Shown piece after piece: positions 2,610 through 60,386 of a stretch of 64,000 nucleotides of DNA; positions within the stretch are counted from its first letter, which is position 1, and each line of letters opens with the position of its first letter. The stretch covers positions 60,670 through 124,669 of the forward strand of contig SUVR01000002.1 in NCBI GenBank assembly GCA_015061915.1, in the 5' to 3' direction. Made by a program: the position numbers and the translations under genes. The notes under the pieces were generated by a model that saw only the letters and a program-made list of their open reading frames with translations, ran no database searches and was not told the origin of the DNA. The DNA comes from Lentisphaerota bacterium (GTDB lineage Bacteria; Verrucomicrobiota; Lentisphaeria; Victivallales; UBA1829).

Positions 2610-4817
2610 ATGCACAGCAATGATCTTGCCTCTGCAAAATGGATCCGTTATCCCGGCGATCCCGGTGCGGACAATACCTATACCCTTTTCCATACAACAT
2701 TTCAGGCGGACACCACAAAAAAAATCGTGTTGCGGCTTTCCGTTGCGGGCAACTACGCCTGCCGCATCAACGGCAGACTGGCGGCGTTCGGACAGTACAC
2801 GGACTTTCCCGCAAACAAGACTTATTCCGAAACGGATGTGACCGGATGCTGTCAGAACGGCTGCAACACGGTGGAGATCACCACCTATTTCGGCAGCAAC
2901 CGTTTTTCTTCCCATCTGGACGGGGAACCGGGGCTGATCGCTGCATTTTTCAATGGAGGGGATGTGGTTGCAGCAAGTTCCGCCGACTGGCTCTGCACCC
3001 GGGATGAACACTATCTTGCCGGACCGGATGTGACGATCCTTTCCGGCTCGTTGAACTACTGCTGGATCTTTGATGCAAACCGTGATCCGGGAACAGACCG
3101 CTGGAACCACGCGGAAGAAATCGCATACCGTCCGGTACGGCCGCGCCCCACGCCGCCGGTCGTTATGAAAGATTTTATTCCCGGCAAACTCATCCGTCAG
3201 GGAAAACTGCTGCGGAACAGTCCGGAAGAACTGCATGGAAAGCTGTACGAAAGCGACATCCGGGACCCGGAAACAGAAAGCAACGGGACTTATTTTCTCT
3301 ACGATCTGGGCAAAGAATATGCGGGTCTTTTCGCCATGGAACTGACCGCATCCGCCGGGACCGTGCTGGACATCGCCCACGGGGAATATCTGACCGACGG
3401 CGATCATGTGCGGGGGATCATTTTTGCCCGCACATTTGTGGACCGGTACACTGCAAAAGAGGGCACACAGACTTTCACACATGTGGTGCGCCGCGCCGCC
3501 TGCCGCTATATCGAAGTCCATGTGACCGGAGGCGTGGCGGACATTCATAAGATCGGGCTGATCTCCACCGAACTGCCGGGAGAAAGTATGGCGACACCCC
3601 CGTATGTTACTGCCGACCCGTTCTTCATGAAAGCCCATGAGATCTCTGCGGAGACCCTGCGGCTCTGCCTGCACGAAAAGTACGAAAACTGCCCCTGGCG
3701 GGAGCAATCCATCTGCACCTACGACGCCCGGAACCAGATGCTGTTCGGGTACGGGTTCTGGGGCAATTACCGGTACGCTGACGCTATGATCCGTCTCTTC
3801 GGGGAAAGTCTGCGCCCGGATGGCTTCATTGCGGTGGCGGCACCCGGCGGACTGAAAATCAGTATTCCCTCCTATACCTTCCAATGGATGGCGGCGGTGT
3901 ATGAATACACCCTTTATTCCGGCGACGAACAACTCTTTGCCGACCTTGCCCCGCAGATCCGCAAGATGATTGAAACAATCCTCGCCCGGAAAGCGGCGAA
4001 CGGGCTGCATATCCCGCCGGAAGAACATCTTTGGAACTATTGCGAAGCCCCGGCGTTGGAAAATATGCCGTACCCGCCCAACGCGTTTTACAATCTCTAT
4101 CTGGCAGAAGCACTGGAAGATATGGGGCAGATCTTCGGCGGAGAATATGGAGAAAGTCTCACGCAGCACGCAGCAGAACTGCGGCAGATCTGCGTGGAAG
4201 TATTTTATGATCCGGCAACCGGTTTATACGCAGACCACATCACACCGGAAGGTATCCGGAAGCAGTTCCACGGTCACATTCAGATGCTTTTCCTCGCCTG
4301 TGATGGCGTGGATAAAATCCGGCTGATGAATGCCATTCTGGATGGGGAAGTTCCGTTTCCGGCGCTGGGGGCAGTGCCCTATCTTATCAAGTACATCTTC
4401 CGGTACGGTTCGGCGGCAGAACGGAAGAAGCTGCATGAAAAGATCAAAAGTCATTACGCCATCATGCTGGATTCCCAGACCTGGTGGGAAGTCATCGACG
4501 GCATCCGGTACGGCGCCGGCAGCGGTTCGCTCTGTCACGGCTGGAGCGCGGCGCCCGCGTTCTACGATTCTTCATACATCCTCGGGATCACGCCCCTCAC
4601 ACCGGGTTACCGCACGTTCCGGTTCAGCCCCTATTCCGGCGGCATGGACCACGCCTCCGGCACGGTGGCAACGCCCCACGGAACGATCACGGTCTCCTGG
4701 CAGAAAACAGCTGAAGGTCTGAAAGCAGAACTGACCGTTCCCTCCGGTTGTGAAGCAGTCCTTATGCCCTATCCGGAAGAACCGGTGGCAGAACTTATCC
4801 TGCACCGGATCGAGTGA
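2610..4817 (+). CDS. six-hairpin glycoside hydrolase, alpha-L-rhamnosidase (GH78)-like
   Basis: 735 aa. The N-terminus (AKWIRYPG...) and the C-terminal GSLCHGWSAAPAFY motif resemble bacterial GH78 rhamnosidases. No signal peptide. The family assignment is from memory only. Confidence 0.55.
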   Translation: MHSNDLASAKWIRYPGDPGADNTYTLFHTTFQADTTKKIVLRLSVAGNYACRINGRLAAFGQYTDFPANKTYSETDVTGCCQNGCNTVEITTYFGSNRFSSHLDGEPGLIAAFFNGGDVVAASSADWLCTRDEHYLAGPDVTILSGSLNYCWIFDANRDPGTDRWNHAEEIAYRPVRPRPTPPVVMKDFIPGKLIRQGKLLRNSPEELHGKLYESDIRDPETESNGTYFLYDLGKEYAGLFAMELTASAGTVLDIAHGEYLTDGDHVRGIIFARTFVDRYTAKEGTQTFTHVVRRAACRYIEVHVTGGVADIHKIGLISTELPGESMATPPYVTADPFFMKAHEISAETLRLCLHEKYENCPWREQSICTYDARNQMLFGYGFWGNYRYADAMIRLFGESLRPDGFIAVAAPGGLKISIPSYTFQWMAAVYEYTLYSGDEQLFADLAPQIRKMIETILARKAANGLHIPPEEHLWNYCEAPALENMPYPPNAFYNLYLAEALEDMGQIFGGEYGESLTQHAAELRQICVEVFYDPATGLYADHITPEGIRKQFHGHIQMLFLACDGVDKIRLMNAILDGEVPFPALGAVPYLIKYIFRYGSAAERKKLHEKIKSHYAIMLDSQTWWEVIDGIRYGAGSGSLCHGWSAAPAFYDSSYILGITPLTPGYRTFRFSPYSGGMDHASGTVATPHGTITVSWQKTAEGLKAELTVPSGCEAVLMPYPEEPVAELILHRIE

Positions 4818-4919
4818 TTTTCTTCATATCTGGACTGCAATCTTTCATAAAAAATCGCCTTGAAATTCTGTCGATGGGTGCATATAGTATTCCCGTCAAA
4901 CAGAAAGGAGATTTACTTT

Positions 4920-6590
4920 ATGGATATTATGAAAGAGTTTCAGGCACGGAAGTTCGGTATGTTCATCCATTGGGGCGCATACGCCGTTCTGGGTGGACGT
5001 TACAAAGGGGAAGTGATGACGGAGATCGGGGAATGGGCGCAGTCCTACTTCCGGATCCCCAATGAGGAATACGCACAGATTGCCGCCACCTTCAACCCGG
5101 AAAAGTTCGATGCAGATGAATGGATGCGCAAAGCTGCCGCCGCCGGGATCAAATATATTGTCTTCACATCCAAGCACCATGACGGCTTCTGTATGTATGA
5201 CACGGCATATTCGGATTACAGCATTGTGAAGCATACGAAGTTCGGGCGCGACCCGCTGAAAGAACTGCAGCACGCCTGCGAAAAATACGGTATCAAGCTG
5301 GGGATCTACTACTCCCAGTATCTGGACTGGCACGAAGAACACGGAGGCGATCCCGGCGATTCCCATACAAAAAATGTGGCAGGGATGAGCTGGGGAAACG
5401 ACTGGGATTTTCCCCATACCGATCAGAAAGATTTTGAGATCTTCTTCCGTAACAAAGTCGTTCCGCAAGTCACGGAGCTGCTGACCAATTACGGCACGAT
5501 CTGGGAGTTCTGGTTCGATACCCCCATCGCCCAGGAGGCAAAATACAGCCGGGAACTGCGGGATCTGGTCAAACGCCTTCAGCCCCAATGCCTTATCAAC
5601 AGCCGGATCGGTCACGGTTGTCAGGACTTCATCGGGCTCGGCGACAACTGGATGCGTCACGGGAAGATGGATCTGGTGATCGAAGCCGCCGGAACCCTCA
5701 ACCGGACCTGGGGATTCAAGTTTGATGACCACGATTGGCTCAAGCCGGAACAGGTCATCAACACGCTGGTTTCTCTCACCGAAAATAATGCAAATTACCT
5801 GATGAATGTGGGACCGATGCCGGATGGTACGTTCACCCCGGAAACAGACCATATTCTCCAACAGATCGCCAACTGGATCGAAGACAAAAAAGATGCGATC
5901 CACGGTTCAGAACCATCCCCCTTCCCCCAAATCCTGCCGGACGCTTACTCCACTGTCAAAGGCAACCGGCTGAACTTGTTTCTCCGCAATGAGATGGAAC
6001 GTATGCTGCTTGCCGGGATCAACACAAAGATCTCTGCAGCAAGTGTTCCATTCCGGCAGGATGATTGCGGCAATGTGACGCTGGATCTGAAAGGCGTCTC
6101 CGGCTTTCTGCCGCTGGTCTCGCTGGATTTTGACGGCAAACCGGAGATCAGTCAGACCCTCACTGTGCAGAACGGTTCCATGCACCTTTTTATGGACTCC
6201 GGGATCTATGTGCCGGACACCCCGCCGTATGTCCTGTATGACGGCACCGCCGGCGACTGGAAAAAGCCGGAAGGAGCCATCCGCTGGGAAGTGGAAATTC
6301 CTGCCGCCGGGACTTTTGATGTGCTTCTCAAAGTCCAGACCGGTTATCTGGGACCGTGGAGCGGCGACCGGGTCATGGCGCTGGCTTTGGATGAAACACA
6401 GGAAGTCTCCGCCGACCTGAACAACGGCGAAGAAACGCCGCATCCGTACTGTACGATCCGGACCGTAAAGCTGGGCACGTTTCACATTGCAGAACCGGGC
6501 AGAAAGCTTTTGACGCTCCGTACTCTTTCCATCGGGGATGATGCAGCTGCAAACCTGCGGATAGCCTCGCTGATCCTGATCCGGCAGTAA
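4920..6590 (+). CDS. alpha-L-fucosidase (GH29)
   Basis: GH29 hallmarks FGMFIHWGAYAVLGG and HHDGFCMYDT are present. The ATG at 4920 is preceded by AAAGGAG. No signal peptide. Confidence 0.8.
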   Translation: MDIMKEFQARKFGMFIHWGAYAVLGGRYKGEVMTEIGEWAQSYFRIPNEEYAQIAATFNPEKFDADEWMRKAAAAGIKYIVFTSKHHDGFCMYDTAYSDYSIVKHTKFGRDPLKELQHACEKYGIKLGIYYSQYLDWHEEHGGDPGDSHTKNVAGMSWGNDWDFPHTDQKDFEIFFRNKVVPQVTELLTNYGTIWEFWFDTPIAQEAKYSRELRDLVKRLQPQCLINSRIGHGCQDFIGLGDNWMRHGKMDLVIEAAGTLNRTWGFKFDDHDWLKPEQVINTLVSLTENNANYLMNVGPMPDGTFTPETDHILQQIANWIEDKKDAIHGSEPSPFPQILPDAYSTVKGNRLNLFLRNEMERMLLAGINTKISAASVPFRQDDCGNVTLDLKGVSGFLPLVSLDFDGKPEISQTLTVQNGSMHLFMDSGIYVPDTPPYVLYDGTAGDWKKPEGAIRWEVEIPAAGTFDVLLKVQTGYLGPWSGDRVMALALDETQEVSADLNNGEETPHPYCTIRTVKLGTFHIAEPGRKLLTLRTLSIGDDAAANLRIASLILIRQ

Positions 6591-6617
6591 AAAACTCTTT
6601 TATTTATAAAAGGGCGT

Positions 6618-6645
6618 TTGCAATTTTGTCAAAGGGCTGTATATT
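6618..6645 (+). promoter_or_regulatory. putative sigma70-type promoter of rpsA (TTGCAA-N16-TATATT)
   Basis: TTGCAA at 6618-6623 and TATATT at 6640-6645, about 75 nt upstream of the rpsA ATG. Sequence pattern only. Confidence 0.3.
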
Positions 6646-6721
6646 AAATGCTGTTCGCATCTCCGTATGGGGATGGAGGTTTTTCGTAACAAGTCAAACT
6701 TAACCGAAAAGAAAACAAAAA

Positions 6722-8473
6722 ATGACGACGAAAAAAGAAATCGCGCCGGAAGCACCGGCACTGAAGAGCTACGTGGATGACAGCTTTACTGGCACCATGG
6801 CAGATCTTCTGAGTGGCAAAAACGAAGCCAAGAGTGAATTTGCAACCGAAACGATCGTGCACGGCAAGATCGTTGAAAAGCGTCCGGACTCTGTCCTGAT
6901 CGATATCGGTTACAAGGCGGAAGGTGAAGTTCCGGCTTCCGAATTCCGTAATTGGGAAGAAATCCAGGTCGGCGACGAAGTGGATGTGTTCCTGGAAGAA
7001 ATTGAAAACGAACGTAACATGCCCGGCATCAGCTTCATCAAGGCGAACTCCATCAAGTCCTGGCAGAAGATTACGTCTGAATACGGCGAAGGCAGCATCA
7101 TCAAGGGTCTCATGAAGCATCGCGTCAAAGGCGGTATCATCATCGACCTGTGCGGCATCGAAGCATTCCTCCCCGGCAGCCAGATCGATATCGGCCCGGT
7201 GAAGAACATGGACGATTTCATCGGCAAAGAATACGATTTCAAGATCCTGAAGATCAACCAGGATCGCCGCAACATCGTGGTTTCCCGCCGCGAACTGCTG
7301 GAAGAATCCCGCAAGGACCGCAGAGCTTCCCTCCTCAAGGAAATGGAAGTCGGTCAGCTGCGTAAGGGCTCCGTCAAGAACATCACGGACTTCGGTGCAT
7401 TCATCGATCTCGGCGGTGTGGACGGCCTGCTGCACATCACGGATATGAGCTGGGGCAGAATCTCCCACCCGAACGAAATGCTGGAAGTCGGTCAGGAAAT
7501 CGAAGTGATGATCCTGGACATCGACAATGCCAAGGAACGTGTCTCCCTCGGTCTCAAGCAGAAGAGCCACAATCCGTGGGACGATGTGGAAGCCAAGTAC
7601 GCGATCGGCAGCGTTGTCAAGGGTCACGTGGTCAACATTATGCCTTACGGTGCGTTCGTGGAAATCGAACAGGGCGTCGAAGGTCTGATCCACGTCTCCG
7701 AAATGAGCTGGACCAAGCGCGTCACCAAGGCTGGCGATGTGGTCAGCGTTGGCGAAGAAGTGGAAGCTGTTGTTCTTGACATCGACAAAAAAGGCAAGAA
7801 GATCAGCCTCGGTCTCCGTCAGAAGACCCGCAATCCGTGGGAAGTTCTGGCTGAAAAGTATCCGGTCGGCAGCAAGATCCACGGCAAAGTCCGCAACATG
7901 ACCAGCTACGGTGCATTCGTTGAAATCGAAAACGATATCGACGGTATGATCCACGTCTCCGATATGAGCTGGACCCGCAAGATCAACAACCCGAACGAAG
8001 TTCTCAAAGTCGGCGACGAAGTCGATGCCGTTATCCTGGACATCGATCCGCAGCAGCAGAGAATCAGCCTCGGCCTCAAGCAGACCGAAGTTGACCCCTG
8101 GTCCGACATCGAAACCTTCTACAAGATCGGCGAAGTTGTCAAGGGCAAAGTCACCAAGATCACTGCGTTCGGCGCATTTATCGAACTCTCCCACAAGATC
8201 GACGGTCTGGTCCACATTTCCCAGATCAGCAAGGATCGCGTGGAAAAAGTCAAAGATAAACTGCAGCTCAACGATGAGATCGAAGCCCGCGTCATCAAGA
8301 TCGACAAGGACGAACGCCGCATTGGGCTCAGCATCAAGGCTCTGGATGAAGACTTCTCCGAAGACGACATCAAGGCTGCCGGTGAAGAAGTTGCCGCTGC
8401 TCTCCGTCCCGGTGAAGACCTGGGCGATATGAGCCAGATCTTCGGCGCTCTCGACGGTCTCAAAGAAGACTGA
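6722..8473 (+). CDS. rpsA: 30S ribosomal protein S1
   Basis: 583 aa with six S1 (OB-fold) repeats. The motif G.V..I..FGAF(V/I)(D/E)(L/I)..G(V/I)(D/E)GL(I/L)H(I/V)S(D/E/Q) recurs through the protein. Confidence 0.95.
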   Translation: MTTKKEIAPEAPALKSYVDDSFTGTMADLLSGKNEAKSEFATETIVHGKIVEKRPDSVLIDIGYKAEGEVPASEFRNWEEIQVGDEVDVFLEEIENERNMPGISFIKANSIKSWQKITSEYGEGSIIKGLMKHRVKGGIIIDLCGIEAFLPGSQIDIGPVKNMDDFIGKEYDFKILKINQDRRNIVVSRRELLEESRKDRRASLLKEMEVGQLRKGSVKNITDFGAFIDLGGVDGLLHITDMSWGRISHPNEMLEVGQEIEVMILDIDNAKERVSLGLKQKSHNPWDDVEAKYAIGSVVKGHVVNIMPYGAFVEIEQGVEGLIHVSEMSWTKRVTKAGDVVSVGEEVEAVVLDIDKKGKKISLGLRQKTRNPWEVLAEKYPVGSKIHGKVRNMTSYGAFVEIENDIDGMIHVSDMSWTRKINNPNEVLKVGDEVDAVILDIDPQQQRISLGLKQTEVDPWSDIETFYKIGEVVKGKVTKITAFGAFIELSHKIDGLVHISQISKDRVEKVKDKLQLNDEIEARVIKIDKDERRIGLSIKALDEDFSEDDIKAAGEEVAAALRPGEDLGDMSQIFGALDGLKED

Positions 8474-19142: not shown

Positions 19143-19175
19143 AAGATCCGCAGTCTGCTGCGGATCTTTTTTTTT
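19143..19175 (+). terminator. intrinsic terminator of lpxA
   Basis: AAGATCCGCAG-tctg-CTGCGGATCTT followed by a T9 run. It overlaps the stop codon of the convergent gene at 19174. Confidence 0.8.
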
Positions 19176-20340
19176 ACAAAAATTGCAATCCGCAATGATC
19201 GAAAGGACACTGAAGCGACAACGAACATCTGCGATATCGGTCGGTCCGGGCGCCATAACCGGAAGCGGGGCGGCTGATCGGAGCGGAGGCAAAAGAGCGG
19301 CTTTCATCCGCCTCCACGGTCTGTTCGATCAATATCTGCCAATCACCTTCGGCATAAGAACCGGGCAGGAACGGCAGATTTTCAACAGCATCATGTCTGC
19401 ATTCGTACTGCACATGAATCGGCAGAGGTTCATCGGACCGGGCGATTATCCTGCGGGAAACATTCCGGATCGTCCGACGCCAACTGGACGAACAGACTTC
19501 CAGTTCGCTGTAAGAAACGCCATCACCAAAGAAATTTCCGTCTGCATCCCCGGTATATTCTGTCTTCCGGCGACGAACTTCTGTATAATTGTTTCCGGTC
19601 GTACTTTCTTCTGTCCGGTCCCACGCGGCTTCTTCACTGAGTGTTCCGCTTCCGGAAACGCCGTTCAGATTCCATTCTTTTCTGGAAGGACAGGATCGGA
19701 GCAAGAAATTCCGCTCGGCTCCAGTATATTCAACCAGCTGAAATGAAGCATCAATCTCCTGCAGGGGAATGGTTAATTTTTTCAGGAGTTGCTGTATTCC
19801 GAACATCCAGTCACCAAGCAAAGTCAAATTGGCAGCATCCGGCAGGAAGACGGGAAAGGACGGGATCAGTTCCCCGGCAGTATAACATTCTGCATAAAGG
19901 ATGATCCGTACATCCTCCGGACCGGTCAAATCTCCCTCCCGGTTCATCTGCAGGTTCAAACATCCCGCCTTAAAGGAAAGTTTACCGGCTTCAAACTCAT
20001 CTGTAAAATCTTCCAGCGGAACCTGCATCCAAGTTTTGTAAAAACCATCCTGCGTCCGTAAGGTGAGTTTCCGGATCTTCCCCTCCTCCACAGCAACAAA
20101 ATAAGGCAGGATCCGCTTCAGTTTATCGCTGATGATCCGCACGGCACCTGCGATACTGTAAAGATTTCCGAAGGGCTTTTCCAAGGTCTGTACCGGTTCA
20201 CCGCACAGTTTGCAGCGTTCCAGCACCGCCAGACGGATCGCCTCCAGGCGTTTGCAGATTGAATCGCCGCACAGGGCGGCACGGTTCTCCCAGCTGCCGT
20301 AATCTTCCCAACAGCGGGCTGTGTTTTCATTTTCGTTCAT
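19174..20340 (-). CDS. hypothetical protein (no recognisable family)
   Basis: The ATG at 20340 is preceded by AAAGGAGAG. 388 aa with no signal peptide or TM segment. The N-terminal region has several cysteines (CWEDYG...CGDSIC...CKLCGEP). Confidence 0.5.
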   Translation of the reverse strand: MNENENTARCWEDYGSWENRAALCGDSICKRLEAIRLAVLERCKLCGEPVQTLEKPFGNLYSIAGAVRIISDKLKRILPYFVAVEEGKIRKLTLRTQDGFYKTWMQVPLEDFTDEFEAGKLSFKAGCLNLQMNREGDLTGPEDVRIILYAECYTAGELIPSFPVFLPDAANLTLLGDWMFGIQQLLKKLTIPLQEIDASFQLVEYTGAERNFLLRSCPSRKEWNLNGVSGSGTLSEEAAWDRTEESTTGNNYTEVRRRKTEYTGDADGNFFGDGVSYSELEVCSSSWRRTIRNVSRRIIARSDEPLPIHVQYECRHDAVENLPFLPGSYAEGDWQILIEQTVEADESRSFASAPISRPASGYGARTDRYRRCSLSLQCPFDHCGLQFL

Positions 20341-20380
20341 CGGCTCTCCTTTCCATTTTTCAAGAGGCAGAGCGTCAAAC

Positions 20381-20409
20381 AAAAAAAGGTGCCCCGTTTC
20401 CGAAGCACC
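20381..20409 (-). terminator. intrinsic terminator of guaA
   Basis: On the minus strand, GGUGCUUCG-GAAA-CGGGGCACC is followed by U7 (A-run 20381-20387 on the plus strand). Confidence 0.75.
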
Positions 20410-20430
20410 TTGAAAAGCCGTTCGTTCAGC

Positions 20431-21735
20431 TTATTCCCACTCGATCGTTCCGGGGGGCTTGCCGGTGATGTCGTACACCACCCGGTTCACGCCTTCCACT
20501 TCCTTCACGATGCGGTTGGACATCTTGAAGAGCAGTTCCCAGGGCAGTTCCACCACATCGGCAGTAACTGCGTCAACGGAGTTAATGGAGCGGATGGCGA
20601 TCACGTGTTCATAAGTCCGCTTGCCGTCTTTCATACCGACCGACTTGACCGGCACGAAGATGGCAAAAGTCTGCCAGGTCTTGGCATACCAGCCGGAGTT
20701 GTGCAGTTCTTCCGTCACGATGTTGTCCGCATCCTGCAGCATACGGAGCGTTTCGCGCTTGATGGCGCCCACATGGCGGACACCCAGTCCCGGTCCGGGG
20801 AACGGATGACGATCCAGCATCACAGAGGGCAGACCGAGGATGCGACCAACTTCGCGGACTTCGTCCTTAAAGAGGCGTTCCACCGGTTCCACCAGCTGGA
20901 ACTTCAGATCTTCCGGCAGACCACCCACATTGTGATGGCTCTTGATCACGCTTTCCGGATTGCCGTCCAGCGGAATGCTTTCCAGAATATCCGGGTAGAT
21001 CGTTCCCTGACCGAGGAACGGCGCATTGGTAGCAGCTGCCGCTTCCGCAAAGACATCGATAAATTCCTTACCGATGATCTTGCGTTTCCGTTCGGGTTCT
21101 TCCACGCCGGCAAGTTTATCCAGGAAGCGGTCCGTGGCATCCACATAGACCAGCTTCATCTTGAACGTATCTTCAAAGATCTGACGGACCATTTCCGGTT
21201 CGTGCTTGCGGAGGAGACCGTGATTGACAAAGACGCAGGTCAGGCGGTCACCGATCGCTTTGTGGATCAGGGCAGCCACCACACTGGAGTCAACGCCGCC
21301 GCTCAAGCCGAGAACGACCGTCTGATCGCCCACCTGAGCGCGGATATCAGCAACAGCTTCTTCCACGAAATTTTCCATGGTCCAGGAACCGGTGCAGGCA
21401 CAATCTTTCATACAGAAATCACAGACTTCCGCCACATCCAGATCATCTTTTGCGTTCGCTTTCTTCACGCCGGGAAGCATATCCGCTGCGGCATTGACAG
21501 CGATCTTCGGCATATCCAACGCCTGAAATTTTGCCAGTTGCGCCGCCACTTTATCACATGCAGCATCTGCCACAAAAATCAAGCCGGAAGGCGCTTCTTC
21601 CATGACTCTTTCCGCAGTAACCGTGTAGGGCATCACCATAGTGTAGATGTGATGGGAGCGGATTGCCCGTGCGAACTTCTGAACACCTGCACATCCACAG
21701 TTGATCAGAACGATCGTTTCTTTTGTTCTTTTCAT
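20431..21735 (-). CDS. guaA: GMP synthase with truncated/degenerate glutamine amidotransferase domain
   Basis: ATP-pyrophosphatase P-loop VVLGLSGGVDSSV, a dimerisation domain and the canonical C-terminus ...GKPPGTIEWE are present. The N-terminal domain is only about 125 aa and lacks the G-x-C-x-G nucleophile and the HPE motif. The ATG at 21735 has an AAGGAG upstream. The track start at 21774 is a TTG. Confidence 0.85.
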   Translation of the reverse strand: MKRTKETIVLINCGCAGVQKFARAIRSHHIYTMVMPYTVTAERVMEEAPSGLIFVADAACDKVAAQLAKFQALDMPKIAVNAAADMLPGVKKANAKDDLDVAEVCDFCMKDCACTGSWTMENFVEEAVADIRAQVGDQTVVLGLSGGVDSSVVAALIHKAIGDRLTCVFVNHGLLRKHEPEMVRQIFEDTFKMKLVYVDATDRFLDKLAGVEEPERKRKIIGKEFIDVFAEAAAATNAPFLGQGTIYPDILESIPLDGNPESVIKSHHNVGGLPEDLKFQLVEPVERLFKDEVREVGRILGLPSVMLDRHPFPGPGLGVRHVGAIKRETLRMLQDADNIVTEELHNSGWYAKTWQTFAIFVPVKSVGMKDGKRTYEHVIAIRSINSVDAVTADVVELPWELLFKMSNRIVKEVEGVNRVVYDITGKPPGTIEWE

Positions 21736-21777
21736 CTTCCGTTTATACTCCTTATGAGTTGAGATGTCATTCAAAAA

Positions 21778-22923
21778 TCACAAGACCCGTGCGCCATCCC
21801 CGATCCCGCAGATCAGGGTTTCCGCCACCTTGCCGGTCATGGTCTTGTAAGCCGTTTTCAGGCGCTCGCAGTATTGTTCCGCCTGATCCGATTCCACCAG
21901 ATGGATGCTGATCCCGCCGAAACCGCCGCCGGAAAGTCTTGCACCTGCGCAACCGGGGAGCGTCTTGGCGATCTCCACCAGCGCATCCAGTTCGGTACAG
22001 CTGTTTTCAAACATATCCCGGCTGCTTTCATGGCTGGCAAAAAGCAGCGCGCCGAACGCCCGAATGTCACCGGCTTCCAACAGTTTCACGCCCTGCATGA
22101 CCCGTTCGTCCTCGCCGACAACGTGTTTGGCACGCTTCCAGTCGGTAATATCCATATCGTCTTTGCAGCTTTCCAACATAGCAGAATCCACATCCCGCAA
22201 TGCCTTGACAGCAGGATATTTTTTCTGGATGGCGGCAAGGGCATTTTCACAGCTCTGACGGCGCAGGTTGTAATCCGATTCCACCAGATTATGTTTTACC
22301 ATCGTGTTGGCTACGACCATACTCCAACCGGCAGGCATGGAAACCGTTTTCAGCACTTCCACGGTGCGGAAGTCACAGAGGATCAGGGAATCTTTTTTGC
22401 CGTAGAGGGAGCTGAACTGGTCCAGCAGACCGGATTTCAAGCCCATGAAATTGTTTTCGACGCCCTGCCCTGCCCGCGCCCAATCCGGCAGGGAAAGTTC
22501 GATCTTGAAGATCGTCTTCAGGGCAAAGCCGAACGCCATCTCCAGTGCGGCGCTGCTGCTCATTCCGGCAGACAGGGGAACAGTGCTGCTCAGTTCCGCA
22601 TTGAATGCGCCGATTTTGGCGCCGCGTTTCTGCAGTTCCAGGATCAAACCTTTGAGATAGTTCCGCCAGTCGCCCTTGACATAGGTGGTAAGATCGTTCA
22701 GATCCAGCGTGCAGTCCTTGCCGTTTTCATGAATGGTGCAGACTGTGCCTTCCACGGGGGACATGGAAACGGTTGTCGCCCGGTCGACTGCGGTGCTGAG
22801 GACGAATCCTTCATTGTAGTCGGTATGATTTCCCAGGACTTCCAGTCGTCCGGGAGCAATCGCACAAACGGCGGGAAGTGCGCCGAAACGGGCTTTGAAC
22901 GCTTCAATATTGGCGTTGGACAT
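21778..22923 (-). CDS. galK: galactokinase
   Basis: GHMP kinase with the galactokinase signature GRLEVLGNHTDYNEGFVL and the ATP motif PLSAGMSSSAALE. Confidence 0.9.
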   Translation of the reverse strand: MSNANIEAFKARFGALPAVCAIAPGRLEVLGNHTDYNEGFVLSTAVDRATTVSMSPVEGTVCTIHENGKDCTLDLNDLTTYVKGDWRNYLKGLILELQKRGAKIGAFNAELSSTVPLSAGMSSSAALEMAFGFALKTIFKIELSLPDWARAGQGVENNFMGLKSGLLDQFSSLYGKKDSLILCDFRTVEVLKTVSMPAGWSMVVANTMVKHNLVESDYNLRRQSCENALAAIQKKYPAVKALRDVDSAMLESCKDDMDITDWKRAKHVVGEDERVMQGVKLLEAGDIRAFGALLFASHESSRDMFENSCTELDALVEIAKTLPGCAGARLSGGGFGGISIHLVESDQAEQYCERLKTAYKTMTGKVAETLICGIGDGARVL

Positions 22924-46459: not shown

Positions 46460-47307
46460 TTCACATAGCCTCCATTCATTGCTGCTGCAAAAGCACGCAT
46501 TGCATCTTCGGCAGCTCCCGGTTCATGGACTCGCACAAATTCAACTTTTTTCTCCGTCAGATATGCCAACACTCCTGCTGTGGCAAAATCGCGTTCACAC
46601 GGCTTTTTTTCTCTGCCGAGAAAGGATTTCCGTGAAATCCCATAGTACAATGGCAACCCGTGTTTCCGGAACTGTTCCGCATCCCGGACCAACTGCCAGT
46701 TTGCCGTGACAGTCTTCGCAAACCCGACACCCGGATCCAGTGTGATCCGGTCACGCCGGATCCCTGCCCCGACCGCAAGATCAATCTGCTTCTCAAAGAA
46801 TGAATTGATCTCTCCGATCAGATCCTGATAGAGAAGATTCTCCTCATTCTGCATCGTCTCCGGCGTCCCACGCATATGCATTAACACCAGACCGGCATCA
46901 TATTTTGCAATCACTTGTGCCATATCCGGATCAAATTGCAGTCCGCTGACATCATTGATCACATCTGCGCCGGCATCCAAAACGGCTTCCGCCACGGCTG
47001 CTTTCCGCGTATCCACGCAGATCACGCAGTCCGGCTGCCGTTCCCGCAAGGACCGGATCACCGGCACGAGCCGTTCAATCTCGGTCTGCACCGGTTGAGC
47101 GGCAGCTCCAGGCCGGGTGGATTCCGCTCCGATGTCGATCGCATCGGCACCGGAACTCAACATCTCTTCTGCGTGAGCCACAGCGCCTTCCACCGTCCGG
47201 TACGCGCCGCCATCGCTGAACGAGTCATCCGTCAGGTTCAGGATCCCGATGATTTTCGGGACCCCGCTGCCCGACGTTGCAAAGAACCGGTCAGTCCTGC
47301 GCATCAT
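46456..47307 (-). CDS. folP: dihydropteroate synthase
   Basis: GILNLTDDSFSDGG, DIGAESTRPGA and VINDVSG motifs. The likely start is ATG-ATG at 47307/47304, which overlaps the gyrA 3' end by about 17 nt. The track start at 47391 is probably too long. Confidence 0.88.
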   Translation of the reverse strand: MMRRTDRFFATSGSGVPKIIGILNLTDDSFSDGGAYRTVEGAVAHAEEMLSSGADAIDIGAESTRPGAAAQPVQTEIERLVPVIRSLRERQPDCVICVDTRKAAVAEAVLDAGADVINDVSGLQFDPDMAQVIAKYDAGLVLMHMRGTPETMQNEENLLYQDLIGEINSFFEKQIDLAVGAGIRRDRITLDPGVGFAKTVTANWQLVRDAEQFRKHGLPLYYGISRKSFLGREKKPCERDFATAGVLAYLTEKKVEFVRVHEPGAAEDAMRAFAAAMNGGYVK

Positions 47308-50029
47308 CAGCGTCTTCTCCGCTGCCTTCCGCTTCGACTTCGTAGATCTCTTCGCCGTTTTCATCAAAGTGCTGTGCGGCGTAGTCCACACCGGAACCGG
47401 CCTTCACAACAAACTTTTCTTCTTCGGTCTCTTCCGGCTTGTTTTCCACTTCCACCTGAACAATGCAGGAGACGCTGGTAATGCGGTCGTTCTTGCGTAG
47501 GTTCATGATGCGGACGCCCTTGGAATTTCTGCCCACCTTGCGGATCTCGCTGACGGGGATACGGGTGATCTGACCGCGTTCCGTGGTGATCAGCAGTTCA
47601 TCGTCTTCCTTCACGCGCAGGGCAGCCACAACGGTTTCACCTTCATCCAGGTTCATGTTCTTGACGCCCTTGGCGCCGCGGCGGGTCAGGCGGTACTTAT
47701 CCACATAGCTGCGCTTACCCATACCGCCGCTGGTCACGACCAGCAGCTGGGGCTTGCCGTTATCTTCTTCCGTTTCCGCATCATCATCGGTATCGGCGGC
47801 GTCTTCGTTCACATCATCTGCCACATCGTCCGCCACATCATCGGCGGGCAGTTCTGCATCGTCATCAATGGGTGCCGCGTTGAGGGCAGCTTCCGCATTT
47901 TCGCCCGGCACAACTTCCATACTGACGATATAGTCGTCTTCGATTTTGAAGCGGATCCCGGTAACACCGCGGGCAGCTCTGCCCATACTGCGGATGTCAG
48001 ATTCCACGAAGCGGCAAGCCATACCCTTGGCGGTGGAGAGGATCACTTCATCCGTACCACCGGCAAGTTCTGCACCGATCAGGTCGTCGCCTTCCTCGAT
48101 GATGAGAGCGCGGAGTCCCACATTACGCAGATTCTTGAACTGGGAAAGGGCAGTCTTCTTCACAACGCCGTTGCGGGTCGCCATGACAATGGACATATTT
48201 TCCATATCGAACATGGATTTGTTCAGGGTCAGCATGGCCTTGATCTGTTCGCCCGGTTCGATCTTGATCAGGTTCACGATCGCTTTGCCGTTGCCGGTAC
48301 GGACACCTTCCGGGATGTCATACACGTTCAGCCAGTACATGAAGCCCTTGTCCGTAAAGAAGAAGATGATGTCGTGGCTGTCCGCATTGAACAGGTGCGC
48401 CACATGGTCCTCATCCTTCGTCTTCATACCCACAATGCCCACGCCGCCGCGATGCTGAGTCTGGTAGGTATCTGCGGGCACGCGCTTGATGTAACCGGTG
48501 TCGGAGACCGTGATCACGCAGGAATGACGGGGGATCAGGTCGGCAATATCCAGGTCGCCGTCATCGTACGTGATTTCCGTGCGGCGCTTGTCGGCGTAAC
48601 GTTCCTTCACATAGAGCAGTTCTTCCTTGATGAGCTGGATGCGCATTTCACGGCTGGCAAGCAGTTCTTTCAGGTAGGTGATCTGCTTCATGACTTCATC
48701 GTAGTCCGCCTGCAGGTCTTCGATGGCAAGACCGGTCAGCTGATGCAGGCGCATATCCAGAATAGCGCCGACCTGGATCCGGGTCAGACCGAAACGATCG
48801 ATCAACGCCGTTGCCGCCGCTTCCTTCGTGCGGGATTCACGGATGATCTTCACCACTTCGTCAATATTATTGACCGCAATGAGCAAGCCTTCGAGGATAT
48901 GAGCGCGTGCTTCCGCTTTCTTCAGTTCAAACTGGGCGCGGCGGGTCACCACTTCAAAACGGTGATCCAGGAACGCCTGAAGGATCTGGGGCAGATTCAT
49001 CACACGGGGACGGTTGTGGTCAACGACCAGCATATTGCAGCCCATAACAGATTCCATTTGAGTGTGGGTGTAAAGCTGGTTCAGGATCACACTGCCCATA
49101 AAGCCGCGCTTGATGTCGATCACAACACGGATCCCCTTTTCTTTGGAGGATTCGTCACGAAGTCCGGAAATACCGTTGATCTTCTTTTCGCCGACCAGTT
49201 CCGCGATCTTTTTGACCATCATTTCCTTATTGACCGCATAGGGGATCTCCGTCACAATGATCTGTTCCTGATTTCCCTTTTCCACGATCTCCGCCTTGGC
49301 ACGAATCTTGATCACACCGTGTCCCGTTTCATACAGGCTGCGGATCGGATCGATCCCGCAGATGATGCCGCCGGTGGGGAAGTCCGGACCGGGCAGACAG
49401 CTCATCAGTTCGCGGACAGTCGCCGTGGGATGTTCCAGCATATAAATCGTGGCATCAATGGTTTCGCCAAGATTGTGTGTGGGAATGCAGGTTGCCATCC
49501 CGACGCCGATCCCCACGCTGCCGTTGACCAGCAGGTTCGGGAACTTGGCAGGCAGGACTTCCGGTTCTGTGTTGGCTTCGTCGAAGGTCGGCATCATATT
49601 GACCGTATCCTTCTCAATGTCGTTGAGCAGTTCTTCCGTCAGACGCTCCATACGACATTCCGTATAACGGTAGGCAGCCGGGGGGTCACCGTCGATAGAA
49701 CCGAAGTTTCCCTGACCTTCCACCAGCGGCTCACGCATGGAGAAGTCCTGCGCCATACGAACGAGCGTATCGTACACAGAAGCATCACCGTGGGGGTGGT
49801 AGTTACCCAGCACTTCCCCGACCACCTTCGCACACTTGACCGTGGCATGAGATTTGGTCAGACCAAGCTGGCGCATGGCATAAAGGATACGACGGTTACA
49901 GGGCTTCATACCGTCACGGACATCCGGGATGGCACGGCCGATATTCACACTCAGAGAATACTGCAGGTACGCAGTATGCATGATATCCTCGATGTTGACG
50001 AGAAAATCATTGGGGCTGTTTTCGCTCAT
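47291..50029 (-). CDS. gyrA: DNA gyrase subunit A
   Basis: 912 aa. Active-site region [10 protein letters not shown] and QRDR-like [25 protein letters not shown], with C-terminal beta-pinwheel repeats. An acidic insertion and an acidic tail are present. Confidence 0.97.
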
Positions 50030-57743: not shown

Positions 57744-60386
57744 ATGAATTGGAAAAATATCTGGCAACACGGACTGATCAAGACTGCAGGGATCATGATC
57801 GCTGCAGTGTTTCTGCTTGCCCTGATGATCCGGGGGATCACCTTCCTTCTGCCATCAAACGGAGATGAGTCGCTTACCACTGTTCCACAGCAGATGACCG
57901 CCAAAAAACGGATCCCGCTGCGTTTGCAACGGGTTCCGGATCCCCGGCTGACCAGTCCCCGGAACAAGGCGGAACAGGCCGTTTTTCAGGCATTTCTGAA
58001 GAAGCACCCGGAGGTTGAAGTTTCGGCATTTTCCGGGATCACCATTGCCAACATTCAGGCGGAATCGGAGATCATGCTTGCCATCGCCGGAGGGAACGCG
58101 CCGGATGTTTTCACCTACATCAATTTCCGGATGTCCGATTCCTATATCCAGCAATCCTTTCTTTATCCGCTGGACGGCTTTCTGGACAGGGACAGATTTG
58201 AAGGAGGCAGAGACGCGTATCTGAACAGTCTTGCCAAACCGATCCGCCCGGTGGTAAAACGCAACGGTCCTGCCATTGGAGACAATGCGGCAGGCGAACA
58301 TATCTGGGCGATGCCCGGTCCGCTTGCCGTGCGTGTTCTGATGTGGCGGAAAGATCTTTTCCAAGAGGCTGGTCTTGATCCGGAACGCCCGCCGCAGGAC
58401 TGGGAGGAATTGCTCTCCTATGCGAAGTGTCTCTCCGATCCCGTTACGGAAAAATACGGTCTGAACATGGATGGCGGACCGCAGGCGGCGTGGGATTTTA
58501 TGGCATTTCTCTGGTCGGCAGGCGGCGAAGCCGTGATTCAGAATGAATCCGGGGAATGGATTGCAGCGTACGGGTCCCGTCAGGCAGCAGAAGCCCTTGA
58601 TTTTTATCTCCGGCTCGCCACGGAACCGTGGATCGATGCAGACGGCAAACAGCAGCGCGGCTATACGGTCCTTTCCGCCAATGCCGGTTCCGTCATGGAA
58701 CGGGATCTGTGGAACGAAGGGCGGATCGGGATGAAAGTGGGTTATCTGGACAGTCAGAACATGGCGGGGAATGTGGATATGGCGCTGATCGGGATCGCCC
58801 CTTTTCCGCCCCACAGACGGGGTGAAAAATCCGGCACGGAACTCAACGCGATCATGACCGGGATCTTTTCCGGGATCGAAGGCAGAAAAAATTCCGCAGG
58901 CGAATGGTGCTCTGCCGATGAGATCCGGGAGGCAGCCTGGCAATACATCCGTTTTATCAATTCGGATGAAGCCAGACAAATCTATGCAGATACTCTGGTG
59001 GCAAACGGTTTGGGCAGAACGCTCAGTCCGGAATATCTGCGGAAGTATGGCTATCCGGAATATCTGAAGTTTTTTCCGCCGGAACTGGAGGAAACGTTCC
59101 ACGATGCCGTACAGAACGGCAAACCGGAGCCTTACGGCAGAAATTGTCAGATGGTTTACACCTTTATGACCGAACCGCTGAACAAAGCACTTCAGCTTGC
59201 CCGTGATGCTGACCTGCCATCCGATCGGGAGAAACGGCTTGAGATCCTGCAGGAGATCCTGAAAAGCTCCGAACGGAAAACAACAGAACAGATGCTGGGC
59301 AATCTTTCGCCGGAAGAACGGGAATTCCGGAATCTCTGGGCGGGGATCGCTGCATTTCTGATCTGTGCGCTGTTCTGTCTGGCGCTCTATAAAATCTGGC
59401 AGATTTTTTCTCCGAAAGATGATTTCTCCGGCAAACAGAAGGGATGGCAATTCCGCAAAAATGCTGTGGCGTATCTCATCATGCTGCCGGCACTGCTGAG
59501 TATCCTGCTCTGGGTGTATTACCCCATGACATTCGGATCCATGCTGCTCTTTCAGGACTACCGGGTGACCGGCGGTTCGGAATGGACCGGGCTGAACAAC
59601 CTGGCAGATGTATTGTTCAGTGCGGATTGGTGGGCAAGTGTCTGGAATACGATGCGGTATATGTTCTGGATTCTGGGTCTGGGGTTTGTGGTGCCGATCA
59701 TCCTTGCCATCCTGCTGCAGGAGGTTTCTCACTGCAAGCTGCTCTACCGGACACTCTTTTACCTGCCGGCAGTGATGAGCGGGCTGGTGGTGATCTATAT
59801 GTGGAAACTTTTTTACCAGTCCGGACCGGCAGGGATCATGAATCAGGTACTGCAATCTCTTACGGATGGTCTGAACTTCATTCTTGTGCCGGCAGTCTCT
59901 CTTTTCGATCCGGAATTCACCGGGATCCCCTTTGAACCGGTGGCGTGGCTGGAAGACGCAAAATGGGCAATGCTTTCCTGTGTCCTTCCGGCGATCTGGG
60001 CAAGTGCCGGACCCGGCTGCCTCATCTATCTTGCGGCGCTCAAAAGTGTGCCGGAAGAAACCTATGAGGCGGCAGAGATCGATGGAGCAAACTTCTTCCG
60101 GAAAGTATGGCACGTAACACTGCCGACGCTGAAGCCATTGATCATTATCAATTTTGTAGGGGCGTTCATCGGTGCAGCTCAAAGCGGCGGGATGATCCTG
60201 ATCATGACCTACGGCAATGCAGAAACCAATGTGGCAGAACTGCAGATCTTCAAGGAGGCTTACACCAATCTGCGCTTCGGAACTGCCATTGGAATGGCAT
60301 GGCTGTTGGGGATCACCACGCTGTTCTTTACGATTTATCAGCTGCGACGGCTTTCCAATATGGAATTCAAGATAACAGGGAAATGA
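57744..60386 (+). CDS. fusion protein: TM anchor + family-1 extracellular solute-binding domain + TM + MalF-like ABC permease
   Basis: 880 aa. TM helix at residues about 12-36. SBP_bac_1-like domain at about 75-525 (AIAGGNAPDVF, WAMPGPLAVRVLMWRKDLFQEAGLDP...W(E/D)ELL). Second TM at about 531-553. A sugar-type BPD_transp_1 permease core runs from about 570 (AVAYLIMLPALLSILLWVYYPM ... EAAEIDGANFFRKVWHVTLPTLKP). Confidence 0.8.
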   Translation: MNWKNIWQHGLIKTAGIMIAAVFLLALMIRGITFLLPSNGDESLTTVPQQMTAKKRIPLRLQRVPDPRLTSPRNKAEQAVFQAFLKKHPEVEVSAFSGITIANIQAESEIMLAIAGGNAPDVFTYINFRMSDSYIQQSFLYPLDGFLDRDRFEGGRDAYLNSLAKPIRPVVKRNGPAIGDNAAGEHIWAMPGPLAVRVLMWRKDLFQEAGLDPERPPQDWEELLSYAKCLSDPVTEKYGLNMDGGPQAAWDFMAFLWSAGGEAVIQNESGEWIAAYGSRQAAEALDFYLRLATEPWIDADGKQQRGYTVLSANAGSVMERDLWNEGRIGMKVGYLDSQNMAGNVDMALIGIAPFPPHRRGEKSGTELNAIMTGIFSGIEGRKNSAGEWCSADEIREAAWQYIRFINSDEARQIYADTLVANGLGRTLSPEYLRKYGYPEYLKFFPPELEETFHDAVQNGKPEPYGRNCQMVYTFMTEPLNKALQLARDADLPSDREKRLEILQEILKSSERKTTEQMLGNLSPEEREFRNLWAGIAAFLICALFCLALYKIWQIFSPKDDFSGKQKGWQFRKNAVAYLIMLPALLSILLWVYYPMTFGSMLLFQDYRVTGGSEWTGLNNLADVLFSADWWASVWNTMRYMFWILGLGFVVPIILAILLQEVSHCKLLYRTLFYLPAVMSGLVVIYMWKLFYQSGPAGIMNQVLQSLTDGLNFILVPAVSLFDPEFTGIPFEPVAWLEDAKWAMLSCVLPAIWASAGPGCLIYLAALKSVPEETYEAAEIDGANFFRKVWHVTLPTLKPLIIINFVGAFIGAAQSGGMILIMTYGNAETNVAELQIFKEAYTNLRFGTAIGMAWLLGITTLFFTIYQLRRLSNMEFKITGK

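Follow-up and report, generated by a model that had tools for sequence, protein, structure and literature searches.

How does a guanosine monophosphate (GMP) synthase that keeps only a truncated glutaminase domain obtain the nitrogen of its product? The question is raised by the guaA gene of a Lentisphaerota bacterium, located in the 64,000-nucleotide stretch of DNA analysed here (contig SUVR01000002.1, positions 60,670 to 124,669; hereafter the window). An earlier note on this DNA (the original prediction) had recognized the truncation and had offered three consequences of it, namely the use of free ammonia, a separately encoded glutaminase subunit, or a paralogue with a different role. From sequence comparisons and from analogy with characterized enzymes, we propose that the window protein is probably a GMP synthetase that depends on ammonia and that carries a pseudo-glutaminase stump with a structural role.

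The gene and its presumed ribosome-binding site are located as follows:
20431 to 21735, minus strand: guaA coding sequence, 434 amino acids plus a TAA stop, encoding the glutaminase-dead GMP synthetase (from the list of open reading frames)
21748 to 21753, minus strand: Shine-Dalgarno-like AAGGAG, 13 nucleotides 5' of the ATG (direct reading)

The open reading frame (ORF) is intact over its 434 codons, and we regard the ATG at 21735 as the correct start because the homologues, which form more than 100 clusters, share the N-terminus MKxTxETVVL. The stop of the upstream galK gene occupies 21778-21780, 42 nucleotides from the guaA ATG; the original prediction had relied on this end of galK, at 21778, to regard a longer protein as unlikely. 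An upstream start or a frameshift restoring the glutaminase domain can indeed be rejected, since the homologues share the start Met, galK lies only 42 nucleotides upstream and the deletion described below is internal.

The domain assignment, recommended as a first check, is clear-cut. The Pfam scan of the window protein returned only PP-loop/NAD_synthase (residues 122-189) and GMP_synt_C (PF00958, residues 342-433; 135 bits for a cut-off of 27, E = 7e-40); it returned no match to PF00117, so that a complete class-I glutaminase domain is absent. Similarly, the NCBIfam equivalog model of the C-terminal part (TIGR00884, guaA_Cterm) was matched with 456.3 bits for a cut-off of 338.75, and the model of the N-terminal part (TIGR00888, guaA_Nterm) reached only 18.9 bits for a cut-off of 172, over profile positions 1-50 only. 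The full-length model NF000848 is passed (516 bits for a cut-off of 400) through profile positions 182-512 alone, i.e., through its C-terminal two thirds, which is why databases name such proteins 'glutamine-hydrolyzing GMP synthase'. Alignments with solved GMP synthases are confined to residues 105-434, residues 197-525 of the Escherichia coli 1gpm chain corresponding to residues 107-434 of the window protein. Judged by these profiles and alignments, the protein belongs to the GuaA synthetase family and not to the glutamine-hydrolysing two-domain type, a defining feature of which was looked for and is missing.

What is left of the glutaminase is an N-terminal domain of only about 105 residues, which with the interdomain linker comprises the following parts (ω, ratio of nonsynonymous (dN) to synonymous (dS) divergence; pLDDT, predicted local distance difference test score):
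21565 to 21735, minus strand: conserved part of the stump, residues 1-57, with β1, α1, β2, α2 and β3 and the α1 motif A22-R23-A-I-R26-S (ω, pLDDT of 84-98, hhalign)
21433 to 21564, minus strand: variable segment, residues 58-101, in place of the catalytic half of the glutaminase (22% identity, saturated dN)
21475 to 21510, minus strand: degenerate nucleophile elbow PKIAVNAAADML, residues 76-87, with Asn81 for Cys (MAFFT, hhalign, column census)
21373 to 21432, minus strand: last glutaminase helix and interdomain linker, residues 102-121, with F107-C108-x3-C112-x-C114-x-G-x-W118 (MAFFT, against the canonical NFxxxICGCxxxW)

That this remnant keeps the first β-α-β of a class-I glutamine amidotransferase, as was first recognized by eye, is borne out both by hhalign and by structure prediction. 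In hhalign, the stump profile matched canonical GuaA with a probability of 96.7% (E = 3.8e-10), residues 2-80 corresponding to canonical residues 3-84; the matched part comprises β1, α1, β2, α2, β3 and β4, and it stops one residue short of the nucleophile Cys. Against a hidden Markov model (HMM) of canonical GuaA N-domains (91 sequences), the window protein aligns at positions 3-56 of the 187 only. When aligned with canonical GuaAs by MAFFT, PKIAVNAAADML faces PVLGICYGMQLM, Asn81 standing in the place of the catalytic Cys; a deletion of ~90 canonical residues follows, in which the His/Glu strand disappears, and the chain picks up again at DVAEVCDFCMKDCACTGSW, which comprises the last helix of the glutaminase and the linker. 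Because these ~90 residues are missing, the P-loop Ser occurs at residue 145 and S145-GGVDS aligns to about residue 235 of 1gpm, in keeping with the early P-loop noticed in the original prediction. As aligned, the deletion is internal and is not an N-terminal truncation.

The comparison with orthologues, also recommended at the outset, showed that 77 Lentisphaeria orthologues share this dead-glutaminase state. The G-x-C-x-G elbow occurs in none of them (0/77), and the residue facing the Cys varies (T, E, N, A, D, G, etc.), being itself a Cys in three sequences (3/77). Both absences claimed for the window protein therefore hold, that of the elbow Cys (Asn81 in the two alignments) and that of the His/Glu segment (deleted in MAFFT, with no PF00117 match), and the Cys-His-Glu triad is lost. 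From these alignments, the glutaminase is unequivocally dead, and the known mechanism of glutamine hydrolysis is not available to the window protein.

The synthetase half is organized as follows (XMP, xanthosine monophosphate):
20713 to 21372, minus strand: ATP-pyrophosphatase (ATPPase; PP-loop) domain, residues 122-341 (Pfam; alignments to 5tw7 and 7sbc; ω of about 0.10)
21283 to 21303, minus strand: P-loop S145-G-G-V-D-S-S151 (invariant in the orthologue alignment)
20977 to 20991, minus strand: α11 motif D249-I-L-E-S253, i.e., DxxES (D249, E252 and S253 in 77/77)
20914 to 20946, minus strand: lid-loop motif I264-K-S-H-H-N-V-G-G-L-P274 (IKSHHN in 77/77)
20854 to 20868, minus strand: α12 motif K290-D-E-V-R294, i.e., KD(D/E)V(K/R), partner of the α1 arginines (K290, E292, V293 and R294 in 77/77, D291 in 75/77)
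20434 to 20712, minus strand: C-terminal dimerisation and XMP-binding domain, residues 342-434, ending with K426-PPGTIEWE (Pfam GMP_synt_C; ω of about 0.13)

This half had been called canonical, and it is: all the motifs quoted at the time are present, up to the GKPPGTIEWE C-terminus, along with the Pfam and NCBIfam matches. The lid motif conforms to IK(T/S)HHN as defined in PMC9312489, and the α11 and α12 motifs to DxxES and KD(D/E)V(K/R) as defined in bioRxiv 10.1101/808618. The helix motif PExKRKIIGxxF is present as P214ERKRKIIGKEF, and the XMP-binding motif KPPxTxE(F/W)x as K426-PPGTIEWE in 77/77 orthologues, with G or A at position 429. Hence, the motifs for adenyl-XMP formation and XMP binding (P-loop, DxxES, IKSHHN, KDEVR and KPP(G/A)TIEWE) are invariant or nearly so in the 77 species.

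Selection was estimated by the Nei-Gojobori method on 812 pairs from these species, and the ω values are rough because dS (about 1.1-1.3) is near saturation. They amount to 0.10 for the ATPPase domain (residues 122-341; mean pairwise identity 82%), 0.13 for the dimer domain (342-434; 79%), 0.16 for stump residues 1-57 (63%) and 0.37 for the last helix and linker (102-121; 50%). In the variable segment (58-101), dN is saturated, pairwise identity falls to 22% and the length differs between orthologues; this segment is predicted to be folded, with a helix at 61-71 and strands at 77-81 and 91-93. F107, C114 and W118 are found in 77/77 orthologues and C108 and C112 in 76/77, and the other invariant residues of the stump are Q19, Y31-T-M-V34, P36, R43 and E47. 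From this purifying selection, and from the synthetase-contact residues that are kept (see below), we conclude that the stump is not decaying. As an observation apart, the cysteines C108, C112 and C114 at the end of the stump form a C-x3-C-x-C (window 21394-21414; 76-77 of the 77 orthologues), a possible metal or redox site; C112 and C114 are common also in canonical GuaA (ICGC), C108 is clade-specific, and C15 (window 21691-21693) is a Cys in 60/77 orthologues.

AlphaFold2, run on a 57-sequence alignment, gave pLDDT values of 84-98 for residues 1-140. Modelled alone, the stump reached a pLDDT of 94.9 and a predicted template modelling (TM) score (pTM) of 0.89, with five strands in a flavodoxin-like arrangement. 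Its top Foldseek matches in the PDB are glutaminase domains or subunits of GMP synthases (9kpv, 1wl8, 1gpm and 2a9v; 79-96 columns), followed by generic Rossmann-like folds. The stump is thus confidently predicted to fold autonomously as a half-glutaminase. The model of the whole protein has TM scores of 0.69-0.79 (mostly >=0.70) with unrotated two-domain structures and of 0.63 with the 85-degree rotated structure 4wio.

Why would half a glutaminase be kept? In Plasmodium falciparum GMPS, the interface consists of the (K/R)(K/R)xRE motif of α1 in the glutaminase and of DxxES (α11) and KD(D/E)V(K/R) (α12) in the synthetase; positions 1 and 4 of the α1 motif form salt bridges with α12, position 2 touches the His/Glu loop, and mutation of K24 or H20 in α1 halves even the NH4Cl-dependent kcat (bioRxiv 10.1101/808618). 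In the window protein the α1 motif reads R23-A-I-R26-S, R23 and R26 being present in 77/77 orthologues and position 2 being Ala or Gly. As the two arginines are kept, and position 2 and the catalytic half are lost, the stump appears to retain the contacts with the synthetase and to shed the parts that serve glutamine hydrolysis. Divergent truncated GuaAs of other lineages likewise retain α1, with two arginines, and the last helix. From these conserved residues we infer that the stump acts as a structural buttress for the synthetase domain.

A further feature sets the C-terminal domain apart:
20617 to 20640, minus strand: residues 366-373, V-G-M-K-D-G-K-R, at the site of the canonical VGVMGDxR, with loss of its Gly-Asp (alignment census)

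The canonical motif of this domain is (S/T)VG(V/I)xGDxR(T/S)Y. Its Gly-Asp pair is invariant in a 33-sequence canonical alignment and present in 42/42 canonical representatives, in every solved bacterial-type structure in which the motif was aligned (5tw7, 7sbc, 1gpm, 3tqi and 2ywb) and in the two archaeal ATPPase subunits served by a glutaminase in trans, 6jp9 (GVKGDER) and 2dpl (GVQGDIR). It is present in 0/77 Lentisphaeria orthologues, in 2/24 truncated representatives (being absent in 22/24, from several lineages) and in 6/17 full-length representatives without the triad; the association with the state of the glutaminase has a Fisher's exact test value of 1.5e-15, with no phylogenetic correction. 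The losses look independent, in that several of the truncated representatives are nearest to canonical GuaAs of different lineages (e.g., P0126 to P0134, 0.68; P0138 and P0127 to the Parabacteroides canonical protein, 0.65-0.66). This motif is an observation of the present analysis and not a published defining feature of GMP synthetases; PMC9312489 mentions an Asp and an Arg, not further specified, in a conserved network of the dimer/XMP interface. Since Gly-Asp is kept by enzymes served by a glutaminase, be it in cis or in trans, and lost by those without one, we have indirect evidence that the Lentisphaeria enzyme works with no glutaminase, and the census points to a link between the Gly-Asp motif and glutamine coupling.

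The same census contains full-length GuaAs of 497-529 amino acids, with a glutaminase domain of complete length that lacks the Cys elbow and/or the HPE motif (P0127, P0128, P0131, P0137, P0142, P0162, P0174, P0177, P0196 and P0232), as classified by simple regular expressions, so that some labels may be wrong; one comes from a Chitinophagaceae metagenome-assembled genome (MAG) and one from a Bacillota MAG. Such proteins may be intermediates toward truncation. Two other kinds of deviant sequences were encountered. P0129, compared with P0498, resembles the Parabacteroides truncated GuaA in its N-terminal part and a different canonical type in its C-terminal part (GVMGDERTYDYAVALRAV...SKPPGTIEFE), and is probably an assembly chimera; P0405 and P0435 (656-707 amino acids) have internally duplicated GuaA segments that look like assembly artefacts.

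How widespread is the truncated form? A scan of one genome per species found 566 stretches encoding relatives, and the results on loci given here concern the best 80 of these 566. All 80 encode the truncated form, with 62-99% identity to the window protein in nearly always full-length matches. They come from Victivallales, Victivallaceae, a Victivallis vadensis MAG, Oligosphaera ethanolica DSM 24202, Oligosphaeraceae and a complete MAG chromosome; a second search added the isolate Victivallaceae bacterium BBE-744-WT-12. The source samples comprise rumen, caecum, colon, human gut and anaerobic digesters. At the protein level, the length class (413-477 amino acids) and the Pfam content recur in more than 120 clusters of 70-99% identity, and the identical protein is found on 23 contigs, including one JGI contig of 254 kb. 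Two bins labelled Anaerovoracaceae (L080, CAVGTF010000026) and Bacteroidaceae (L082, CAVFEH010000002) also carry a Lentisphaeria-type truncated guaA; their products are 62-63% identical to the window protein, like those of Oligosphaeraceae MAGs, and the bins are probably mislabelled or contaminated.

Because the catalytic motifs are intact, the glutaminase is dead and the habitats are rich in ammonia, the best reading is that of an ammonia-dependent GMP synthetase. We propose that the ATP-pyrophosphatase and dimerisation domains adenylate XMP, and that the adenyl-XMP would then be aminated by free cytoplasmic NH3/NH4+, which is the EC 6.3.4.1 reaction and not the EC 6.3.5.2 reaction assigned by databases. 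The 105-residue stump would be the stably folded half of a former class-I glutaminase domain, devoid of nucleophile and His/Glu, and would be retained because α1 (R23 and R26) still packs on α11 and α12, the helices that bear catalytic residues and continue into the lid loop. The loss of the glutaminase would be tolerated because the hosts inhabit ammonia-rich anaerobic habitats (rumen, caecum, colon and digesters). The chemistry has precedents, in that NH4+ is accepted by all GMP synthases tested, and the isolated ATPPase subunit of Methanocaldococcus jannaschii turns over with NH4+ at a kcat of 1.91 s-1 (Km for NH4+ 4.1 mM), as compared with 1.94 s-1 for the glutamine-dependent holoenzyme (PMC10526850). 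This full-rate use of NH4+ makes the M. jannaschii subunit the best functional model for the window protein. By this analogy and from the sequence evidence, we infer that ammonia is the physiological nitrogen donor and that this guaA encodes the main or only GMP synthetase of the cell.

Several points weigh against this interpretation. First, the Km values for NH4+ of other GMP synthases range from 10.8 to 174 mM (PMC10526850), and with values as high as 103-174 mM an efficient use of ammonia is not guaranteed. Second, the Parabacteroides gordonii truncated GuaA is encoded in tandem with a canonical guaA, so that truncated copies can be accessory. Third, the searches for a partner or a second guaA cover the loci around guaA, and outside them the genome may encode a canonical GuaA or a stand-alone glutaminase. 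Fourth, Y247, L288 and F289, reported to contact the glutaminase domain in the rotated state, are kept and invariant in the synthetase domain, and would also fit the docking of a glutaminase supplied in trans. Fifth, the Gly-Asp covariation statistic ignores phylogeny and the role suggested for this motif is hypothetical, and the ω values, with dS close to saturation, are rough. We therefore propose only tentatively the broader view that the stump-bearing enzyme is the sole GMP synthetase of the sampled Lentisphaeria (Victivallales, Oligosphaera and relatives) and the first natural class that is obligately ammonia-dependent, that this state has arisen repeatedly in other anaerobes, and that Gly-Asp is an unrecognised determinant of glutamine coupling.

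Among the three consequences offered by the original prediction, the use of free ammonia is thus favoured, the separate glutaminase is weakened (no nearby ORF, and Gly-Asp lost), and the paralogue has a precedent in Parabacteroides. In P. gordonii (QSWF01000001, locus L087), a canonical guaA (4430-5950) and a truncated one (6001-7308) are tandem paralogues on the same strand, the truncated 435-residue protein being encoded 50 nucleotides downstream of the canonical 506-residue protein and sharing 49% identity with it in the synthetase part. Both are annotated 'glutamine-hydrolyzing GMP synthase'. The truncated protein belongs to a large family that also includes a divergent truncated representative of the census, and from the tandem pair it follows that truncated GuaAs can be accessory paralogues. 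Truncated GuaAs or full-length dead-glutaminase GuaAs occur in many other metagenome lineages, and we take the Bacteroides 'putative GMP synthase 2' (guaA2) entries of Swiss-Prot to be comparable. By extension, the Lentisphaeria gene could encode a second synthetase, ammonia-dependent or heterodimerising, next to a canonical guaA located elsewhere. We consider this unlikely for three reasons: no canonical guaA occurs within ~10 kb of the truncated gene in the 80 loci; the Bacteroidales truncated copy (0.565) is no nearer to the Lentisphaeria protein than canonical GuaAs are (0.54-0.58); and the conservation of its ATPPase domain (ω of about 0.10, 82% identity) is that expected of a housekeeping enzyme.

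The relationships among these proteins bear on the origin of the gene. Truncated, dead, canonical and ATPPase-only representatives are all at a similar distance from the window protein (0.54-0.59), and its identity is 48% with the Parabacteroides truncated copy and 53% with the canonical neighbour of that copy (synthetase part). A recent transfer from a Bacteroidales truncated paralogue is unsupported, the window protein being equally far from truncated and canonical GuaAs, and neither the nearest-neighbour identities nor a rough neighbour-joining tree support a single ancient 'GuaA2' family for all truncated forms. By these distances, the window protein seems to form a separate deep lineage rather than to be a transferred copy.

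Could a separately encoded class-I glutaminase dock on the enzyme and supply it with channelled ammonia, in the manner of Pyrococcus and Methanocaldococcus? Good documentation exists for the archaeal case, and the residues of the rotated-state interface (Y247, L288, F289, DxxES and KDEVR) are invariant in the Lentisphaeria proteins. We searched for such a partner in three ways. First, the HMM of canonical GuaA N-domains, run against ORFs from all six frames of the window and of 82 loci (1.25 Mb in total), found no GuaA-type glutaminase other than guaA itself, and no such ORF lies within ~10 kb of guaA in the 80 loci. Second, precomputed Pfam matches revealed no glutaminase gene in the 84 kb of the source contig around guaA. 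Third, the neighbourhoods are not syntenic: galK-guaA is common to the four closest loci only, and when ORFs within 4 kb of guaA were clustered in the 80 loci, no family occurred in more than 11 of them, so that an operonic glutaminase partner is excluded by the lack of a neighbour shared across diverse loci. The gene downstream of guaA was rejected as an operonic partner on two grounds, its lack of conservation even in the closest relatives and the presence between it and guaA of a terminator-like hairpin:
20379 to 20411, minus strand: terminator-like hairpin of 11 pairs followed by a T-run, beginning 20 nucleotides past the guaA stop (consensus scan and direct reading), suggestive only, as the scan found no more sites than in shuffled sequence

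This downstream ORF (19174-20382, minus strand) has no Pfam match. The source annotation gives it 388 amino acids, the stop-to-stop ORF has 402 from a TTG start, and it is 55% identical over a partial match in a genome with a 99% identical guaA.

Missing gene linkage is not decisive against a two-subunit enzyme, given that the M. jannaschii subunits associate only transiently and that their genes, drawn at separate chromosome positions, are presumably not adjacent. Three features of the protein itself argue against it nevertheless. The tethered stump would still fill the unrotated docking surface through α1; none of the 77 orthologues has the Gly-Asp that both characterized archaeal ATPPase subunits keep; and these solved subunits, of 308 and 310 residues, have no glutaminase remnant, as opposed to the 434 residues and the folded 105-residue stump of the window protein. 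Together with the outcome of the searches, these features make a glutaminase acting in trans rather improbable.

It is more improbable still that the protein is a neofunctionalised paralogue, with a PP-loop that adenylates a substrate other than XMP, or with a stump that has gained a ligand-binding, regulatory or metal-binding role. The strong conservation of the stump, with its invariant Q19, Y31-T-M-V34, P36, R43 and E47, and the clade-specific Cys108 that completes the C-x3-C-x-C would suit such a role. Against it stand the unchanged XMP-binding C-terminal loop, lid motif and other catalytic motifs, the wide margin by which the TIGR00884 equivalog cut-off is exceeded, and the lack of any Pfam match of the stump to another function. 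Finally, a pseudogene or an assembly artefact can practically be dismissed in view of the intact frame, the identical protein on 23 independent contigs, the purifying selection and an architecture shared by more than 120 clusters and by the genomes of 80 species; nothing was found in its favour.

Elsewhere, a gene of the window for a protein of 912 amino acids (47291-50029, minus strand) and a 732-amino-acid gene at locus L083 (16226-18424) have no Pfam match on record and lie among housekeeping genes (dnaJ, htpG, folP-like and cdaA). Two large proteins encoded in the window are unusual fusions for a sugar ATP-binding cassette (ABC) transporter: one of 880 amino acids (57744-60386, plus strand), in which an SBP_bac_1/8 periplasmic solute-binding domain is fused to a BPD_transp_1 permease domain, and the adjoining one of 844 amino acids (60390-62924, plus strand), which has a permease domain and a faint Glyco_hydro_42 match. 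No tRNA gene, and no Rfam family at the gathering threshold, was found in the 64-kb window.

An ammonia-dependent GMP synthetase of this kind would matter in several respects. Since every one of the truncated proteins bears the name 'glutamine-hydrolyzing GMP synthase', metabolic models of gut and rumen Lentisphaeria probably have the wrong EC number and the wrong nitrogen donor for this enzyme. The retained α1 arginines offer a natural test of whether the glutaminase domain props up the synthetase active site, and the recurrent loss of Gly-Asp points to a pair of glutamine-coupling residues that nobody has mutated. More generally, the enzyme suggests that nucleotide synthesis has adapted to ammonia-rich anaerobic habitats.

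How does the window protein compare with known systems? Reviews and a 2023 family survey describe GMP synthetases as two-domain (bacteria and eukaryotes) or two-subunit (archaea) enzymes only, and the survey states that all GMP synthases are glutamine-dependent; our literature search yielded no paper about a bacterial GMP synthase naturally devoid of a glutaminase, nor about a Lentisphaeria guaA. The two-domain GuaAs of E. coli (1GPM), Neisseria gonorrhoeae (5TW7) and Acinetobacter baumannii (7SBC) have the same ATPPase and dimerisation domains (E values of 1e-113 to 1e-122; 35-38% identity in structural alignments over both domains), the same domain order and linker and the same α1, α11 and α12 motifs, and the predicted orientation of the N-domain resembles their unrotated state. 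The window protein differs from them by the ~90 missing glutaminase residues, the absent triad and the loss of Gly-Asp from VGVMGDxR.

Similarly to the window protein, the archaeal ATPPase subunits of M. jannaschii (6JP9) and Pyrococcus horikoshii (PH1347, 2DPL) are synthetases without an active glutaminase in cis, but they are shorter (308/310 residues), have no stump, rely on a dedicated glutaminase subunit and keep Gly-Asp. The P. gordonii truncated GuaA shows the same kind of truncation, the first β-α units and the last helix being kept and the catalytic half deleted; it is of similar size (435 residues), has lost Gly-Asp (GVRDNAR) and is also annotated 'glutamine-hydrolyzing GMP synthase'. 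It is, however, not the nearest relative of the window protein, and the Lentisphaeria gene stands alone in varied contexts.

Outside the family, the Cys-less PurF homologue of Crenarchaeota, PurF', has been proposed to use ammonia directly (PMC3261824), and it is likewise an amidotransferase homologue without the glutaminase nucleophile; it differs in having a Ntn-type glutaminase fold, in being a paralogue beside PurF, and in that its ammonia use is a hypothesis only. A further comparison is offered by the single-domain NH3-dependent NadE, which belongs to the same PP-loop superfamily and performs the same adenylate-then-aminate chemistry, and for which experiments showed that free ammonia, and not an unknown glutaminase, is the physiological donor (PMC3376133). 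NadE differs in its substrate and in the nitrilase-like type of glutaminase concerned, and the ammonia form is probably ancestral there, whereas here it would result from a secondary loss that left a stump. If our proposal is true, the Lentisphaeria enzyme represents a third, ammonia-dependent kind of GMP synthetase, which contradicts the current description of the family and parallels the division of NAD synthetases into NH3-dependent and glutamine-dependent forms.

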